From assembly GCF_003334255.1 (NCBI RefSeq), contig NZ_QOWU01000038.1: 49,700 nt of DNA. One strand, written 5' to 3'. Made by a program: the position numbers and the translations under genes. Shown here in pieces: positions 3-16,955 of this stretch (its first letter is position 1; the number at the start of each line of letters is the position of its first letter). The notes beneath the pieces are model-generated. The model searched no databases and was not told where the DNA came from. It saw only the letters and a list, made by a program, of their open reading frames with translations. Origin of the DNA: Escherichia coli. GTDB lineage: Bacteria > Pseudomonadota > Gammaproteobacteria > Enterobacterales > Enterobacteriaceae.

Positions 3-368
3 CTGATAGAAACAGAAGCCACTGGAGCACCTCAAAAACACCATCATACACTAAATCAGTAAGTTGGCAGCATCACCCTAGTTGCCAAACAATTAGTGCA
101 GGCCTGCCAACCTACAGAAGAATCATTAATGCCGATTGTGAGCCGCCTTGATGCAGAAAATCGTTGTCCACTGGAAGCATTAATTATTCGTCGATTATTA
201 ATTCAGGCGGCGAATTTTACCGAGAAGCAAACTGTTGAACCGGAGCCGCAACCGCAGCCAATGCCCGTTGACGATGGTGGGCCAGGCTGTCTGGGCATCA
301 TTAAAATTATTTTCTATATTTTTATCTTTGCTGGTTTGATAGGAAAAATACTCCATCTGTTCGGGTGA
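3..368 (+). pseudogene. djlB: 3' region of a DjlB-like J-protein paralog, with an in-frame TAA at 60-62; downstream frame 96-368 encodes a DjlC-like C-terminus with a hydrophobic tail
   Basis: Frame-3 translation 63-368 (..[64 protein letters not shown]) parallels the DjlC C-terminus encoded at 1738-3189 (..[55 protein letters not shown]). The same frame is open from nt 3 but hits TAA at 60-62; the track ORF starts at GTG 96. Confidence 0.5.
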
Positions 369-5002: not shown

Positions 5003-5938
5003 TTAAGCGTAAAATTTCAGACGATCAGCCAGTAAATCAACAAAGCCCTGACGATCAACATCGACCATTACGGTGGCATTCGGTTTATTGCCTGTCAGAT
5101 AATAATAATCAACAACCGTCATACCCTGGGTATATTTCCCCTGTGTTTCCACGCCAACCCAGCGCTCAACAGAGGTAAATAACTCCGGTTTCAACAGCCA
5201 GGCGATGGTGCATGGGTCATGCAGTGGTGCGCCGACAAAGCCCCATTTTTCGTCTTTATGATATTCGAGGAAGAAATCCAGCAGTTCGGCAACAATGGTT
5301 GAAACAGGGTTACCAATCGCGCGGAAACGCTCGGTGTCTTCAACGTGGATTTGTGCTTTATGAGTAACATCCAGACCGGCCATCACCACCGGGATCCCTG
5401 ACTGGAAGACAATTTCTGCCGCTTCCGGGTCAACGTAAATATTAAATTCAGCCGCAGGCGTCCAGTTACCCAGCCCCATAGCGCCACCCATAATCACGAT
5501 ACGGGCAATTTTGCTATGCAGTTCCGGATGGCTATTGAGCAGCAAGGCAACGTTAGTTTGCGGTCCGGTAGACACAATGGTGACAGGTTCCGCACTTTCA
5601 CGCAGCGTTTTCGCCATCAGCTCTACCGCCGTACAGTTTTGCGGTGCGAATGTCGGTTCCGGTAATGCCGGGCCGTCGAGACCGCTTTCGCCGTGCACAT
5701 TGTCCGCGATAATCAACTCACGCATTAACGGTTTTACCGCGCCGCCTGCTACCGGAATATCGGTGCGATTAAGCAAGGTCAGCATACGCAGAACATTGCG
5801 TAAGGTTTTTTCTGGTGTCTGGTTTCCGGCGGAAGACGTAATTGCTTTGACATCAAGCTCTGGTGAGGCGAGGGCGAGAACTATTGCGATAGCGTCGTCA
5901 TGACCTGGGTCGCAATCTAACAGAATTGGCAGTGCCAT
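5003..5938 (-). CDS. rihA: Pyrimidine-specific ribonucleoside hydrolase (IU-NH family)
   Basis: N-terminal [12 protein letters not shown] nucleoside-hydrolase motif; start refined to ATG 5938 (311 aa), preceded by AAGGAG; the track ORF adds 11 codons upstream. Confidence 0.9.
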
Positions 5939-6055
5939 TGTTGCTCCTTGTTGTGTGCTTCTTTGCGACAAGGGTAACGCCAGGATGTAACAGATACGAG
6001 GGGCGAAACGATAAAGCGTGAGATGGCGCGCAATTGGGTATGCGCGCCAGAGTGA

Positions 6056-6781
6056 TTAATGCAGGATTTTCGCGAGGAAGTCTTTTGCGCGGTCCGATTT
6101 CGGATCATCGAAGAAAGCGTCTTTCGGCGAGTCTTCGACAATTTTACCCTCGTCCATAAAGATCACCCGATTCGCCACTTTACGGGCAAAGCCCATTTCG
6201 TGGGTCACCACCATCATGGTCATTCCTTCGTTCGCCAGTTCCACCATCACGTCCAGTACTTCGTTGATCATCTCCGGATCCAGCGCCGATGTCGGTTCGT
6301 CAAACAGCATCGCAATAGGATCCATACACAACGCGCGAGCGATTGCCACACGCTGCTGCTGACCGCCGGAAAGCTGCGCCGGAAACTTATTGGCGTGAGC
6401 AGAAAGCCCGACACGCTCCAGCAGTTTCAGGGCTTTTTCACGAGCCGGCGCTTTATCGCGTTTAAGCACTTTCACCTGCGCCAGGGTCAGGTTTTCGATA
6501 ATCGACAGATGAGGGAACAGCTCGAAATGCTGGAATACCATCCCGACGCGGGAACGCAGCTTTGCCAGATCGGTTTTCTTGTCGTTAACCACGATACCAT
6601 CGACGGTGATTTCACCTTGCTGCACCGGTTCGAGGCCGTTGACGGTTTTAATCAGCGTTGATTTGCCGGAACCAGACGGGCCGCAAACCACCACCACTTC
6701 GCCTTTTTTCACTTCGGTTGAGCAGTCGGTCAGCACCTGAAAGTGACCATGCCATTTTGAAACATTTTTCAGGGTAATCAT
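6056..6781 (-). CDS. gltL: Glutamate/aspartate ABC transporter ATP-binding subunit
   Basis: Walker [13 protein letters not shown] signature LSGGQQQR, Walker [12 protein letters not shown]. Confidence 0.9.
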
Positions 6782-7455
6782 TATGCTGTCCTTCTTTTCA
6801 AGTAGCTGACCAACAACGACGCGCTAAGACTAATAACGAAATAAACAAATCCGGCAAACAGGATCATCTCAACCTGCGTACCATCACGCTCACCAATGGT
6901 TGAGGCGGTACGGAAGAAATCGGCCAGGGATAACACATACACCAGTGAGGTATCCTGGAACAGTACGATGCCCTGAGTGAGCAGCAGCGGCACCATCGCG
7001 CGGAACGCCTGCGGCAGAATAATCAGTTTCATCGACTGCCAGTGAGTCATTCCCAACGCCAGCGCGGCGCTCGATTGACCACGAGAAATACTTTGAATAC
7101 CAGCACGGATAATCTCTGAATAGTAGGCCGCTTCAAACATCGAAAACGCCACCATCGCCGAAATTAAACGGATATCATTTTTTGGCGATAATCCCAGCAC
7201 GTTTTGCAGAAAACCCGGCACGATCAGGTAAAACCACAGCAAAACCATAACTAAAGGAATCGAGCGGAATACGTTAACGTAGGCTTTGGCAAACCACGCC
7301 ACGGGCGCAAAGCTGGATAAACGCATCACCGCCAGCATCGTGCCCCACAAAATACCAATCACTACCGCCGTGACGGTGATTTTCAGGGTGATCACCAGCC
7401 CGTCGAGCAGATATGGCAGGGAAGGGACAATGGAACTCCAGTCAAACTCGTACAT
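6781..7455 (-). CDS. gltK: Glutamate/aspartate ABC transporter permease
   Basis: 224-aa polytopic membrane protein; stop overlaps gltL start (TAATG). Confidence 0.9.
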
Positions 7456-8195
7456 TATTTGCCCCCCATGTTGCCAGGCAGGCGAACTTTACGTTCAACC
7501 AGCGTCATCACCAGCATGATAAAAGCGTTAATCAACACATACGCCAGCGTAATGGCGGTAAACGACTCCCAGGCATGGGCTGAGTAATCGAGCAATTTAC
7601 CCGCCTGCGCCGCCATATCCACCAGACCGATAGTCGAGGCGATGGCGGAGTTTTTCACCAGGTTCATCATCTCTGAGGTCATCGGCGGGACGATAACGCG
7701 ATAAGCATTAGGCAGCAGTACGTATCGATAAGCCTGCGGTAGCGTCAGGCCCATCGCCAGCGCGGCATTTTTTTGCCCTCGCGGCAGCGACTGAATCGCG
7801 GCGCGTACCTGTTCGCAAACACGGGCGGCGGTAAACAGCCCCAGGCAGAGCATGGATGAAAGGAAAAACTGAATATTGGGATCCAGCTCGGCCTTAAACC
7901 ACATGCCGATTTTCTCCGGCAGCAGCTCCGGGATCACCAGATACCAGGTAAAGAATTGCACAATCAACGGCACGTTGCGGAACAGTTCGACATACAACGT
8001 ACCCAGACCAGAGAGAAAACGGTTTGGAACGGTACGTAAAATGCCGAAAAATGAACCGACGAGGAAAGCGATAATCCAGGCGCAGATCGACAAAGCGATC
8101 GTCACCTGAAAACCACTCCAGATCCAACCAAGATAGGTGGTGTTGCCGAACGGGGCTTGTTGTAAAAAAATACCCCAGTTCCAGTCTATAGACAT
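7455..8195 (-). CDS. gltJ: Glutamate/aspartate ABC transporter permease
   Basis: 246-aa membrane protein; stop overlaps gltK start (TAATG); GGAG 8 nt upstream of ATG 8195. Confidence 0.9.
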
Positions 8196-8202
8196 AAATC
8201 TA

Positions 8203-8242
8203 CTCCAGAAAAAAGAGGGTAGCAGCGTTAACTGCTACCCTC
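8203..8242 (-). terminator. Intrinsic terminator/attenuator hairpin between gltI and gltJ
   Basis: Perfect 11-bp stem gagggtagcag/ctgctaccctc (8215-8225 / 8232-8242), loop cgttaa, followed on the minus strand by TTTTTT (8214-8209) that runs directly into the gltJ ribosome-binding site. Confidence 0.7.
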
Positions 8243-8370
8243 GAAGATTGTTACCCAGCGTATTGCGGTTTTCAGGCCCGATGGGGAACGACCATCAGGC
8301 GTATAGTCTGTCCGTGCTACGTAACAATCGAGAGGGCTGGAATTTCCGCCCCTGGTTCTTGTAATTAGTT
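8209..8370 (-). ncRNA. sroC: gltI 3'UTR-derived small RNA (SroC-like)
   Basis: Positional: the gltI-gltJ spacer ending at the hairpin terminator is where SroC is described in E. coli; the 5' end is not determinable from sequence alone. Confidence 0.45.
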
Positions 8371-9273
8371 CAGTGCCTTGTCATTCGGTTCTTTGAACAG
8401 TGCTTTCATTTCGTCTGACAGTTCGAAATTCATGTTCAGGTTTTTCGGCGGAATTGGATTTTTGAACCACTTATCAAACCATTTTTCCGCTTCACCGGAG
8501 GTCTGCACCTGAGCGATGGTGTCATCCATCAGCTTTTTGAACTGCGGATCATCTTTACGCAACATACAACCGTAGGCCTCCTGAGACTGCGGCTTGCCGA
8601 CGATTTCCCAGTTGTCTGGTTTCTTCGCTTTCGCACGTTCACCGGCCAGCAGAGCGTCATCCATCATAAAGGCAACGGCACGACCGCTTTCCAGGGTGCG
8701 GAAAGAGTCACCGTGATCTTTGGCGCTGATGATGCGCATATTCATTTTTTGCTCTTCATTCAGTTTGTTGAGCAAAACTTCAGAGGTAGTGCCGGAAGTG
8801 ACGACTACGGCTTTGTCTTTCAGGTTGGCAAAATCTTTGATATCGCCACCCTTTTTGGTCAACAGGCGCGTACCGACCACGAAAATAGTGTCAGAGAAAG
8901 CCGCCTGTTTTTGGCGTTCGACGTTGTTGGTGGTAGAACCACATTCAAAATCGAAAGTGCCGTTTTGCAGCAGTGGAATACGGTTTTGTGAGGTAATCGG
9001 AATCAGTTTTACCTGCAAGTCCGGTTTGTTGAGTTTCTTTTTCACTGCTTCAACAATGGCGTTGGAGTAATCCTGCGAGTAACCCACCACTTTTTGCTGA
9101 TTGTCGTAATAAGAGAAAGGCACTGAAGATTCACGGTGACCGACGACAATCACACCGTTTTTGGCGATTTTGTCCAGAGTACTGCCCGCTGCCGGGGCGG
9201 CGTCATCTGCCTGTGCCAGTCCTGCGGAAAGCGCCAGGGCGAGGATTGCTGTGGCAGGTTTACGTAATTGCAT
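8365..9273 (-). CDS. gltI: Periplasmic glutamate/aspartate-binding protein
   Basis: Start refined to ATG 9273 (MQLRKPATAILALALSAGLAQA signal peptide) with AAGGAG upstream; the track ORF extends 25 codons further. Confidence 0.9.
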   Translation of the reverse strand: MQLRKPATAILALALSAGLAQADDAAPAAGSTLDKIAKNGVIVVGHRESSVPFSYYDNQQKVVGYSQDYSNAIVEAVKKKLNKPDLQVKLIPITSQNRIPLLQNGTFDFECGSTTNNVERQKQAAFSDTIFVVGTRLLTKKGGDIKDFANLKDKAVVVTSGTTSEVLLNKLNEEQKMNMRIISAKDHGDSFRTLESGRAVAFMMDDALLAGERAKAKKPDNWEIVGKPQSQEAYGCMLRKDDPQFKKLMDDTIAQVQTSGEAEKWFDKWFKNPIPPKNLNMNFELSDEMKALFKEPNDKALN

Positions 9274-9669
9274 ATCCAACTCCTTTATCTTCTGCGTTAA
9301 GAACGCATGGATACCCGTTGTGAGTGTTTGTGTTGTTATCGTCTGCAACTTTATTGTGCAGTGTTGTGCCTGTTAGGTAACATTTAGTTTGGCTAAATGT
9401 AAAGATATTGCTGTTTTATTGTTTGTTTTTGCGAGATGCGCCGCACCATTCCGAAGCAAAATTCTTAAAATGCACTCTTTTAGTGCTACCGCTGGATTAC
9501 TGTGGTGCAACTAGGTTGTACTGATGCTGATTCAGGGTTTGCCTTGTATAACAAAGCAATAGATGTGCCAAAGTTGGATAGGAGAATATTGTTATCCGGA
9601 TAATGCACTGATGCCGCATCCGGTGAGCGTGCCGAAATATGGGATGTATTCCGGCACGATAAGAAGGGA

Positions 9670-11208
9670 TTATTTACGTCGCTGACGCAGACTCATCAAC
9701 ACAGCAGCAAAACCAAACAATGCCGTCAGCACCCACAGCGGCCAGTTGCCGGTACGTGCGTATGGTGTGAGTCCGGTGGTCGGCGTCACGTTAGTGGTTA
9801 ACACCTCGCGGGTGAACTGCGGGATCATCGCCTGAATCTCACCCTGCGGGCCAATCACCGCCGTAATGCCGTTGTTGGTGCTGCGCAACAGTGGGCGCGC
9901 CAGCTCCAGCGCACGCATTCGCGCCATCTGGAAGTGTTGCCATGGACCAATAGATTTACCAAACCACGCATCGTTGGAGATAGTCAGCAGATAGTCGGTA
10001 TCCGGGCGGAAGTTATCGCGCACTTGCTCGCCGAGAATGATCTCGTAGCAAATAGCCGCAGTAAGCTCAATACCATTTGCCGACAGCGGCGGCTGGATAT
10101 ATGGCCCACGGCTGAACGACGACATCGGCAGATCAAAGAACGGTGCTAACGGACGCAGAATCGACTCCAGCGGGACAAACTCGCCAAACGGCACCAGATG
10201 GTTTTTGTTATAGCGATCGGCTGATTCGTAGCTGTACGGCGCACCTTTACCCAGCGTGATGATGGTGTTGTAGGTATCGTAGCGGTTCTGCTTATTGAGA
10301 CGCGCGTCGACAATCCCGGTTACCAGCGAGCTACCTTTATCACGCAACTCACCGTCCAGTGCTTTGAGGAACGGTTGCTGATTAATTTCCAGATCGGTTA
10401 TCGCCGACTCCGGCCAGATAATCAACGATGATTTGCCCATCAGCGGTGCCGTTGCGTTGTAGTAAATCTTCAGCGTATTAAGAAGCTGGCCTTCGTCCCA
10501 TTTCAGCGATTGCGGAATATCGCCCTGAACCATCGAAACCTGAATGGTTTTCTCCGGTTGTGGGGTAAACCACTGGATGTAACGCAGCGGGAAGGGAAGG
10601 GCAAACAGCACGACGGCCACCACCAGCGGACGCCAGTTGCGTTTGACCAACGCCAGTGCCAGCAGGCCACTAACCATCATCAGCAGGAAGTTAATGGCTT
10701 CCACGCCCATTATCGGTGCCAGCCCTTTTAACGGGCCATCAATCTGGCTATAGCCGAACTGTAACCACGGGAAGCCGGTCAGTACCCAACCGCGCAGAAA
10801 CTCGGTCACTTGCCAGAGGGCAGGGGCGGCAATCGCTACGCGCAGCCAGGTGGTTTTCGGCCACAGACGCGACAGCACGCCAGCAAACAGTCCGGTATAC
10901 AGCGACAAATACGCCGCCAGCAGCACCACCAGGAAGATGTTAACCGGGCCAGGCATTCCGCCAAAGGTCGCGATGCTGACATAGACCCAGTTAATACCGC
11001 TGCCAAAGAGGCCAAATCCCCAGCAAAAGCCAATAGCGGCAGACTGGAGTGGACGGCGGTTAAAGGTCAACGCCTGAAGCCCCATCAGCGAAATAATCGC
11101 CGCAGGCCAGACGTCGTAAGGAGAGAAGGCCAGCGTTCCGCAGGCACCGAATAATAACGCCAGCAGCAGGCGAATGCGCTGGCGTTCAATTAATGAGGCA
11201 AAAGCCAT
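9670..11208 (-). CDS. lnt: Apolipoprotein N-acyltransferase
   Basis: 512-aa membrane protein with C-terminal carbon-nitrogen hydrolase domain; conserved position before corC. Confidence 0.9.
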
Positions 11209-16756: not shown

Positions 16757-16831
16757 TGGCTGGGGTACGAGGATTCGAACCTCGGAATGCCGGAATCAGA
16801 ATCCGGTGCCTTACCGCTTGGCGATACCCCA
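16757..16831 (-). tRNA. glnV: tRNA-Gln (anticodon CUG)
   Basis: Minus-strand 75 nt: TGGGGTATCGCCAAGCGGTAAGGCACCGGATTCTGATTCCGGCATTCCGAGGTTCGAATCCTCGTACCCCAGCCA; anticodon loop TTCTGAT, encoded CCA end. glnV and glnX are identical so the symbol is nominal. Confidence 0.9.
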
Positions 16832-16878
16832 ACAAATTGGTTTTGAATTTGCCGAACATATTCGACACATTCAGAATT

Positions 16879-16955
16879 TGGTGGCTACGACGGGATTCGA
16901 ACCTGTGACCCCATCATTATGAGTGATGTGCTCTAACCAACTGAGCTACGTAGCC
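16879..16955 (-). tRNA. metT: Elongator tRNA-Met (anticodon CAU)
   Basis: Minus-strand 77 nt: GGCTACGTAGCTCAGTTGGTTAGAGCACATCACTCATAATGATGGGGTCACAGGTTCGAATCCCGTCGTAGCCACCA. Confidence 0.9.

Follow-up and report, generated by a model that had tools for sequence, protein, structure and literature searches.

The closest described counterpart of the element considered here is SroC, a small RNA found in 2003 (Vogel et al. 2003). SroC appears on Northern blots as a stable species of ~160 nt with a 5' monophosphate and is cut from the gltI transcript by RNase E in the 5'-end-dependent mode, with Hfq (Miyakoshi et al. 2015). According to the same study, a leaky Rho-independent terminator gives rise to a monocistronic gltI mRNA, while read-through gives rise to gltJKL. 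In its discussion, a single promoter is held to give rise to the gltI-only transcript as well as to the mRNA of the whole operon, and the leaky terminator is proposed as the reason for the excess of GltI over the permease (Miyakoshi et al. 2015). SroC binds the sRNA GcvB via two sites of 7–8 nt located 14 nt apart and triggers its decay by RNase E; upon deletion of sroC, the half-life of GcvB increases from 1.7 to more than 15 min (Miyakoshi et al. 2015). The experiments concerning RNase E, Hfq, and GcvB were performed in Salmonella, and the E. coli homologues were reported to be equally functional (Miyakoshi et al. 2015). Later reviews repeat the leaky-terminator model of SroC. A 2016 mBio paper names the operon “gltI-sroC-gltJKL” when describing its deletion strains and does not deal with terminator biology.

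The current study concerns the same junction in the window, i.e. the whole 49,700-nucleotide stretch of Escherichia coli DNA that was analysed (contig NZ_QOWU01000038.1), in which the gltIJKL operon is encoded on the minus strand (Table 1). The gltI-gltJ spacer is 169 nt in length and is untranslated on this strand. The range singled out by the first-pass annotation, 8196..8371, comprises this spacer plus 7 nt of gltI and contains SroC in its entire 163-nt length. Among 5426 complete E. coli genomes, 5384 carry this spacer with an identity of at least 99%. It folds tightly, with a free energy of -70.3 kcal/mol (z = -5.49). K-12 carries an IS5 element upstream of gltI that is absent from the window, which marks the window as DNA of a non-K-12 strain; the sroC region exhibits no difference between the two. 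A sigma-70 promoter scan of the minus strand from 5500 to 10000 returned no match and also missed the known gltI promoter region, and it is therefore uninformative regarding an internal gltJ promoter.

Several lines of evidence establish the identity of the RNA. When the whole window was scanned with Rfam RF00369, model positions 1–163 of 163 were matched with a score of 174.8 bits (gathering threshold 45; E = 5.7e-37). In K-12 MG1655, the ncRNA sroC (b4763) is annotated in RefSeq at the equivalent position (686681..686843), and a comparison of the window with K-12 (NC_000913.3) around b4763 found 271 of 271 positions to be identical. The location is likewise that of SroC, as the RNA lies in the gltI-gltJ spacer on the operon strand with its 5' end just within gltI, and the layout in K-12 is alike. 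SroC begins 2 nt ahead of the gltI stop codon and thereby shares the final 5 nt of the gltI coding sequence, and its annotated 3' end is located 2 nt beyond the U-tract and 11 nt ahead of gltJ. The first-pass annotation had proposed a stable, SroC-like small RNA derived from the gltI 3'UTR; with the Rfam match and 100% identity to b4763, the element is more than SroC-like: it is SroC, and the ~160-nt species that was expected on Northern blots is the one described in the literature. The feature is thus already known from Rfam, from the RefSeq annotation of K-12, and from reviews, and its mechanism was published in 2015. Genomes annotated by PGAP, such as that of strain 720632, leave SroC unannotated.

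Table 1. Coordinates of the gltIJKL genes and of the elements at the gltI-gltJ junction (positions in the window).
Feature	Coordinates	Strand	Basis or remark
gltI CDS, periplasmic Glu/Asp-binding protein	8365..9273	-	ORF list; RefSeq annotation of identical DNA (strain 720632, K-12)
gltI stop codon TAA	8367..8365	-	
SroC small RNA, 163 nt	8207..8369	-	Rfam RF00369, K-12 annotation, sequence identity
SroC stem-loop 1	8334..8351	-	Centroid fold; compensatory changes in the 44-spacer alignment (columns 33-44)
SroC stem-loop 2, long imperfect hairpin with both GcvB contact sites	8246..8329	-	MFE and centroid folds
GGACAGAC, SroC nt 57-64	8306..8313	-	Exact 8-nt complement of K-12 GcvB nt 156-163
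UCGUUCC, SroC nt 79-85, apical loop of stem-loop 2	8285..8291	-	Exact 7-nt complement of GcvB nt 13-19
Terminator hairpin (SroC stem-loop 3)	8215..8242	-	11 Watson-Crick pairs and 1 U.G pair, 4-nt loop
U6 tract	8209..8214	-	Sequence; termination point 8209 from published Term-seq on K-12
gltJ Shine-Dalgarno GGAG	8203..8206	-	2 nt past the U-tract, 7 nt ahead of the ATG
gltJ CDS, permease	7455..8195	-	ORF list, RefSeq annotations; ATG at 8195..8193
gltK	7455..6781	-	Downstream of gltJ
gltL	6781..6056	-	Downstream of gltJ

The two sites complementary to GcvB were identified by an exact-word complementarity search of SroC against K-12 gcvB. The match serves solely as a consistency check, given that 47% of shuffled SroC sequences yield at least two words of at least 7 nt. 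The GGACAGAC site represents an internal-bulge GcvB-binding site and takes in GcvB G156, while the apical-loop site takes in G14 and G18, all of which were protected by SroC in published probing. The two sites are separated by 14 nt in SroC, in agreement with the published spacing. All 44 aligned spacers have GGACAGAC unchanged, but since the search pattern fixed six of its eight nucleotides, variation could occur only at the central AG. GGTCGTTCCCC at the apical-loop site lies outside of the search pattern and is invariant in all 44 as well. The helix at the tip of stem-loop 2 exhibits compensatory changes on both sides in 14–20 of the 44 sequences at four pairs (columns 84–87 with 101–104). 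A whole-molecule RNAduplex calculation for SroC and GcvB gave -78.8 kcal/mol, which falls inside the shuffle range (mean -72.4, sd 6.7) and corresponds to an implausible end-to-end duplex; the exact-word search was used in its place.

Read on the minus strand, the end of the spacer is 5'-GAGGGUAGCAG UUAACG CUGCUACCCUC UUUUUU CU GGAG UAGAUUU AUG. A perfect 11-bp stem with a U6 tract, ending 13 nt before the gltJ start codon, had been noted in the initial reading of this DNA, and both the sequence and the fold bear this out: eleven pairs are perfect Watson-Crick pairs, RNAfold adds a twelfth (U.G), and the distance from the U-tract to the gltJ ATG is 13 nt (8208..8196). The RNA folding that had been suggested as a check was performed on 8190..8250, and the hairpin alone has a free energy of -22.7 kcal/mol as compared to -7.15 +/- 2.26 kcal/mol in 200 dinucleotide shuffles, none of which was as good (z = -6.88). 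The same hairpin is the top-ranked site in a terminator scan of 5500..10000 (12 pairs, 7 G-C), and a 12-pair stem with 7 G-C pairs followed by UUUUUUCU is the makeup of an intrinsic terminator. The U-tract had also been said to abut the GGAG, which holds as adjacency but not as strict contact, since a 2-nt gap separates the two. The gltJ Shine-Dalgarno (SD) sequence is carried by read-through transcripts only.

To place this junction in a broader context, one genome per species was scanned for a 15-mer of the SroC core; the sample hence consists of SroC-bearing species only. We retained 54 loci, 52 of them scan matches and the other two E. coli references, for which both the C-terminus of GltI and the N-terminus of GltJ were required. 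They represent ~15 genera, namely Escherichia, Salmonella, Citrobacter, Enterobacter, Klebsiella, Raoultella, Kluyvera, Kosakonia, Siccibacter, Phytobacter, Lelliottia, Pluralibacter, Huaxiibacter, Superficieibacter, and Intestinirhabdus. Chance 15-mer matches in unrelated phyla accounted for about 40 of the 97 scan stretches; these lacked gltI and gltJ and were dropped. Among other enterobacteria, the full-length Rfam sroC model was found in 20 of the 20 loci tested, with scores of 87.5–187.6 bits. The geometry of the junction is nearly constant across the 54 loci. The distance from the end of the U-run to the gltJ ATG is 13 nt (n = 32) or 12 nt (n = 19) in most cases and 11 nt (n = 2) or 14 nt (n = 1) in the remainder, the gap between U-tract and SD is 2 nt (n = 44) or 1 nt (n = 10), the SD ends 6–8 nt before the ATG, and a U-run of 6–9 is present in every locus. 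The spacer length itself ranges from 154 to 288 nt, and this variation stems from insertions near the gltI stop codon or within the SroC body. As the junction consists almost entirely of the SD and a normal SD-ATG spacing, its conservation is to be expected.

The terminator exhibits differing designs among these genera. Its core, GGGTAG/CTACCC, is invariant in the 44 distinct spacers and is accordingly uninformative for covariation. Three different lineage-specific inserts, each lengthening the stem with self-complementary sequence, instead speak for a hairpin that may be maintained in evolution. Most genera encode a short terminator, GAGGGTAGC-GCT-GCTACCCTT, with 9 pairs and about -13 kcal/mol, followed by U8. 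In Escherichia, a 7-nt insertion in the loop region results in a 12-pair stem of -22.5 kcal/mol, and a further G-C pair at the base of the stem results from a U-to-C change that also cuts the run to U6. The stem has been lengthened independently in Kluyvera and one further lineage, with different self-complementary inserts. E. coli SCPM-O-B-8794 combines the long stem with U8. The junction geometry and the Escherichia-specific longer stem are new here, albeit minor. Judging from the sequences, such genus differences in stem and U-tract could alter termination efficiency and hence the ratio of SroC to gltJKL.

Taken as a whole, the feature is almost certainly the 3' part of sroC, namely the leaky intrinsic terminator that lies between gltI and gltJ in the gltIJKL operon. 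According to this model, transcription from the gltI promoter would either stop at the U-tract (8209) or read through. Stopping would yield a monocistronic gltI mRNA, from which a 5'-end-dependent RNase E cut near the gltI stop codon would release the stable, Hfq-bound, 163-nt SroC. SroC would then pair with GcvB via 8313..8306 and 8291..8285, leading to GcvB decay by RNase E and to the de-repression of amino-acid transporter mRNAs, gltI itself included. Read-through would instead supply the message for the gltJKL permease and ATPase. In effect, the terminator would divide one transcriptional input between GltI plus the SroC sponge and the membrane components. None of the observations contradicts this model. 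The present analysis identifies the RNA, describes its hairpin, U-tract, and two complementary sites, and documents that the junction is conserved, while the position of the 3' end, Rho-independence, the dependence upon RNase E and Hfq, and the sponging of GcvB are taken from the literature. Partial termination as a means of setting the ratio of binding protein to permease, which the first-pass annotation had put forward, agrees with the published model for the identical sequence as far as termination is concerned (Miyakoshi et al. 2015); that leakiness of the terminator sets the GltI-to-permease ratio is likewise argued at the level of discussion in the literature and may well apply here. The literature searched yielded no terminator-mutant test of such ratio-setting, no test of gltJ translation at the gltI-gltJ junction, and no test of the regulated termination raised by Miyakoshi et al. 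2015.

Published Term-seq data from K-12 bear upon this model and upon its alternatives. In the supplementary data of Adams et al. 2021, a 3' end is placed at 686683(-) and classed as 14 nt upstream of gltJ; it is supported by an average of 42,928 reads in LB at OD 0.4. Given a K-12-to-window offset of 678,474, this end corresponds to 8209, the last U of the tract. A 3' end near 8209 had been named beforehand as the finding upon which the proposal should be judged, and the end predicted from the sequence alone agrees with the published one to the nucleotide. This end has an intrinsic-terminator score of 3.71 at a threshold of 3.0, and the 800-nt windows on its upstream and downstream sides have read coverages of 102 and 82, respectively (Adams et al. 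2021). The marginal score and the high downstream coverage are both compatible with a leaky terminator, with RNA stability as a confounder of the coverage ratio. In another growth condition, a second 3' end occurs at 686689, i.e. 8215 in the window and thus the stem base (Adams et al. 2021), which suggests that some SroC 3' ends are trimmed. Neither sroC nor gltJ is named in the main text of Adams et al. 2021; the data sit in the supplements. Conceivably, the ends at 8209 and 8215 could both result from a downstream endonucleolytic cut with subsequent trimming to the stem, in which case the hairpin would be mainly a REP-like barrier to 3'-to-5' exonucleases and the full gltIJKL mRNA would always be made. 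The second end lying exactly at the stem base, a downstream coverage of about 80% of that upstream, and the common occurrence of selective stabilisation in other ABC operons (Miyakoshi et al. 2015) would all suit such a barrier, but the main end in LB is the last U after a G+C-rich stem, which is the signature of intrinsic termination, and a barrier requires no U-run, yet a run of 6–9 is found in 54 of 54 loci. Furthermore, Miyakoshi et al. 2015 explicitly contrasted gltI with stabilisation and observed a discrete read-through band from a plasmid construct, which ended at the downstream rrnB terminator. We therefore regard an exonuclease barrier as a highly improbable main function of the hairpin. 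Even less credible, to the point of being negligible, is a 3' end created by Rho-dependent termination. While the untranslated 169-nt spacer could in principle load Rho, bicyclomycin treatment gives the end at 686683(-) a Rho score of only 1.10, with the entry for a significant Rho termination region reading “No” (Adams et al. 2021), the tight fold of the spacer disfavours loading, and a canonical intrinsic terminator is present.

Leaky intrinsic termination at the U-tract could still be accompanied by a further role of the same element in gltJ translation. The hairpin and U-tract would in that case also control translation on the read-through mRNA, with the U-tract serving as an S1-binding enhancer or with Hfq on the hairpin and U-tract occluding the SD 2 nt away. 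Such a role would be in keeping with a gap of 1–2 nt and an SD-ATG distance of 6–8 nt in 54 of 54 loci despite spacers of 154–288 nt, with terminator arms and a 5' flank (ATCTTCGAGGGTAG) that are invariant beyond the needs of base pairing, and with the speculation that termination at gltI is regulated by an element in cis or a factor in trans (Miyakoshi et al. 2015). However, the SD is single-stranded in the MFE structure of 8190..8250, and RNAalifold leaves its columns unpaired in the consensus of 44 distinct spacers that each include 12 nt of gltJ. Neither the single-sequence fold nor the 44-spacer consensus contained a conserved structure pairing the gltJ SD, and hence there is none of the conserved alternative pairing of SD or start codon that characterizes an RBS-sequestering switch. 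One candidate helix, CCAG 8355..8352 with CUGG 8208..8205, was taken from the 186-nt MFE structure and would mask half of the SD; it is the sole candidate touching the SD and was rejected as not conserved on the 44 sequences, where pairing holds in 69% of cells and the helix is equalled by 92 of 500 shuffles and by slid registers. The constancy of the junction would be expected anyway from an SD at normal spacing, and intrinsic-type 3' ends (score of at least 3) also occur 13–14 nt before yfeC, nuoA, tcdA, and menA, none being closer than 13 nt (Adams et al. 2021). This shared distance suggests simple compact packing, and the terminator-RBS layout resembles an unremarkable case in which the terminator sits as close to the start codon as space for an SD permits. 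Consequently, translational control of gltJ by this element appears unlikely. The same holds for a regulated switch, a doubtful prospect in which a trans factor would tune read-through and/or gltJ translation and thereby split output between SroC and the permease according to amino-acid supply. This reading draws upon the invariant terminator arms and 5' flank (AUCUUCGAGGGUAG) and the conserved 1–2 nt gap between U-tract and SD. Hfq, bound to the hairpin and U-tract as they are being transcribed, could be such a factor, as could an sRNA on the 5' arm or S1 on the U-tract. None of the computations supported a translational or regulated-termination role of the juxtaposition. As for the coupling of gltJ translation to read-through, which had been suggested for this junction, it exists in a trivial sense only: transcripts that stop at the U-tract end before the SD and ATG are reached, and only read-through ones carry them. 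No conserved pairing of the SD was observed.

With leaky termination within sroC as the favored reading, the locus can be compared to its described relatives. It shares with SroC of K-12 the same sequence (271 nt), position, 163-nt length, three stem-loops, two GcvB sites, and terminator. SroC of the Salmonella type and of other enterobacteria has the same core, GcvB sites, GGGTAG/CTACCC arms, and a distance of 11–14 nt from U-tract to ATG, but mostly a 9-pair stem with U8 as opposed to the 12-pair stem with U6 of Escherichia. The invariant junction geometry in ~15 genera, together with these differing stem and U-tract designs, provides a basis for a terminator-swap comparison between Escherichia and most genera. 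Like SroC, the small RNAs CpxQ, SdhX, GlnZ, OppZ, MalH, and NarS use the intrinsic terminator of their host mRNA, obtain their 5' ends from RNase E, and are bound by Hfq. These RNAs end a transcription unit, however, whereas SroC sits inside an operon, and its terminator must therefore be leaky, with SroC output competing with the downstream genes. Unlike the CpxQ-type 3'-derived sRNAs, SroC has as its main target another sRNA, which it sponges, rather than an mRNA. A parallel to the SroC-gltJKL arrangement exists in SgrS-setA, where the sRNA similarly needs its own terminator and the downstream ORF needs read-through, and discordant expression follows in both cases; yet SgrS arises as a primary transcript from a promoter of its own, while SroC is processed from the upstream coding mRNA. 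Lastly, the REP/hairpin elements of malE-malF and hisJ-hisQ serve the same goal, an excess of binding protein over membrane components, and are likewise placed after the first cistron. Those elements block 3' exonucleases, whereas the gltI-gltJ element is an intrinsic terminator with a U-tract.

The terminator hairpin of SroC, the sRNA of the gltI-gltJ spacer, is variable in length across genera. When the stem at 8215..8242 of the window was compared with those at seven gltI-gltJ loci of other enterobacterial genomes (L009, L012, L023, L010, L029, L059 and L087), a short form of 9 pairs followed by U8 was common to most Enterobacteriaceae, and the Escherichia stem, with 12 pairs and U6, was a lineage-specific extension of this short form. 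Separate extensions, each with a different insert, were evident in Kluyvera and in the lineage of L087.

In the published 3'-end data for K-12, a weak antisense 3' end was recorded at position 686719(+), equivalent to 8245 (+) of the window, with ~965 reads in one condition (Adams et al. 2021, Term-seq supplement). As this end lies 3 nt beyond the SroC terminator hairpin read on the + strand, it hints at a minor bidirectional terminator activity of the hairpin. The terminator arms (GGUAGC and UGCUACC, within 8218..8241) are also complementary to an internal hairpin of the sRNA GcvB, GGUAGCAAAGCUACC. The complementary words shared with K-12 gcvB nt 114-128 span 6-7 nt. The match probably arose by chance, from the likeness of the two hairpins, and each partner is paired inside its own RNA.

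Insertions in or next to SroC are found in other genera. The ~125-nt insertions of Citrobacter braakii and Phytobacter have related ends, GATGAAGTGTAATCAGGG and GATGAAGTGTAGTCAGGGG, and may represent a small mobile or repeat element. With them, the stop codon of gltI is set apart from the site of SroC 5' processing. In Siccibacter, the Rfam match is still full length despite the ~80-nt insertion in stem-loop 2 (SL2), scoring only 87.5-88.8 bits, and the terminator-SD junction is likewise unaltered, with 11 nt to the ATG.

Coordinates of the stretches that contain the insertions at SroC, and of features of the window
Feature	Coordinates	Strand	Location or remark
~125-nt insertion, Citrobacter braakii	L027:1847-2157		gltI stop codon to SroC stem-loop 1 (SL1)
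~125-nt insertion, Phytobacter	L089:1608-1914		gltI stop codon to SL1
~125-nt insertion, Phytobacter	L096:518-825		gltI stop codon to SL1
~80-nt insertion, Siccibacter	L015:3473-3732		3' half of SL2
~80-nt insertion, Siccibacter	L050:11873-12134		3' half of SL2
gltI-lnt intergenic region	9274..9669		396 nt, without IS5
tRNA-Gln(CTG)	16757..16831	-	ubiF-asnB interval
tRNA-Met(CAT)	16879..16955	-	ubiF-asnB interval
ES036 (CssrF) sRNA, RF02751	19281..19323	+	Rfam, 41.1 bits (gathering score 37.6)

Elsewhere in the window, the ES036 (CssrF) match lies between asnB and the adjacent downstream gene, and the same family is matched in Rfam at 42..84 of the E. albertii locus L005.

The ubiF-asnB interval contains only two tRNA genes (16757..16955, - strand), whereas K-12 has seven (metT-leuW-glnU-glnW-metU-glnV-glnX); leuW and both tRNA-Gln(UUG) genes are among those missing. 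With flanks that match K-12 at 99.8-100%, the two-tRNA layout looks like the product of either an assembly collapse or a deletion mediated by repeats. If the deletion is real, it is unexpected, because K-12 is not known to have UUG-anticodon Gln tRNA genes other than the two of this cluster. A contiguous match to the tRNA stretch exists in just 21 of the 5426 complete E. coli genomes, and the best of these retains Met and two Gln tRNA genes there. A further difference concerns the region upstream of gltI, which in K-12 MG1655 carries IS5D (insH3), whereas the gltI-lnt spacer of the window lacks it; the strain is therefore non-K-12.
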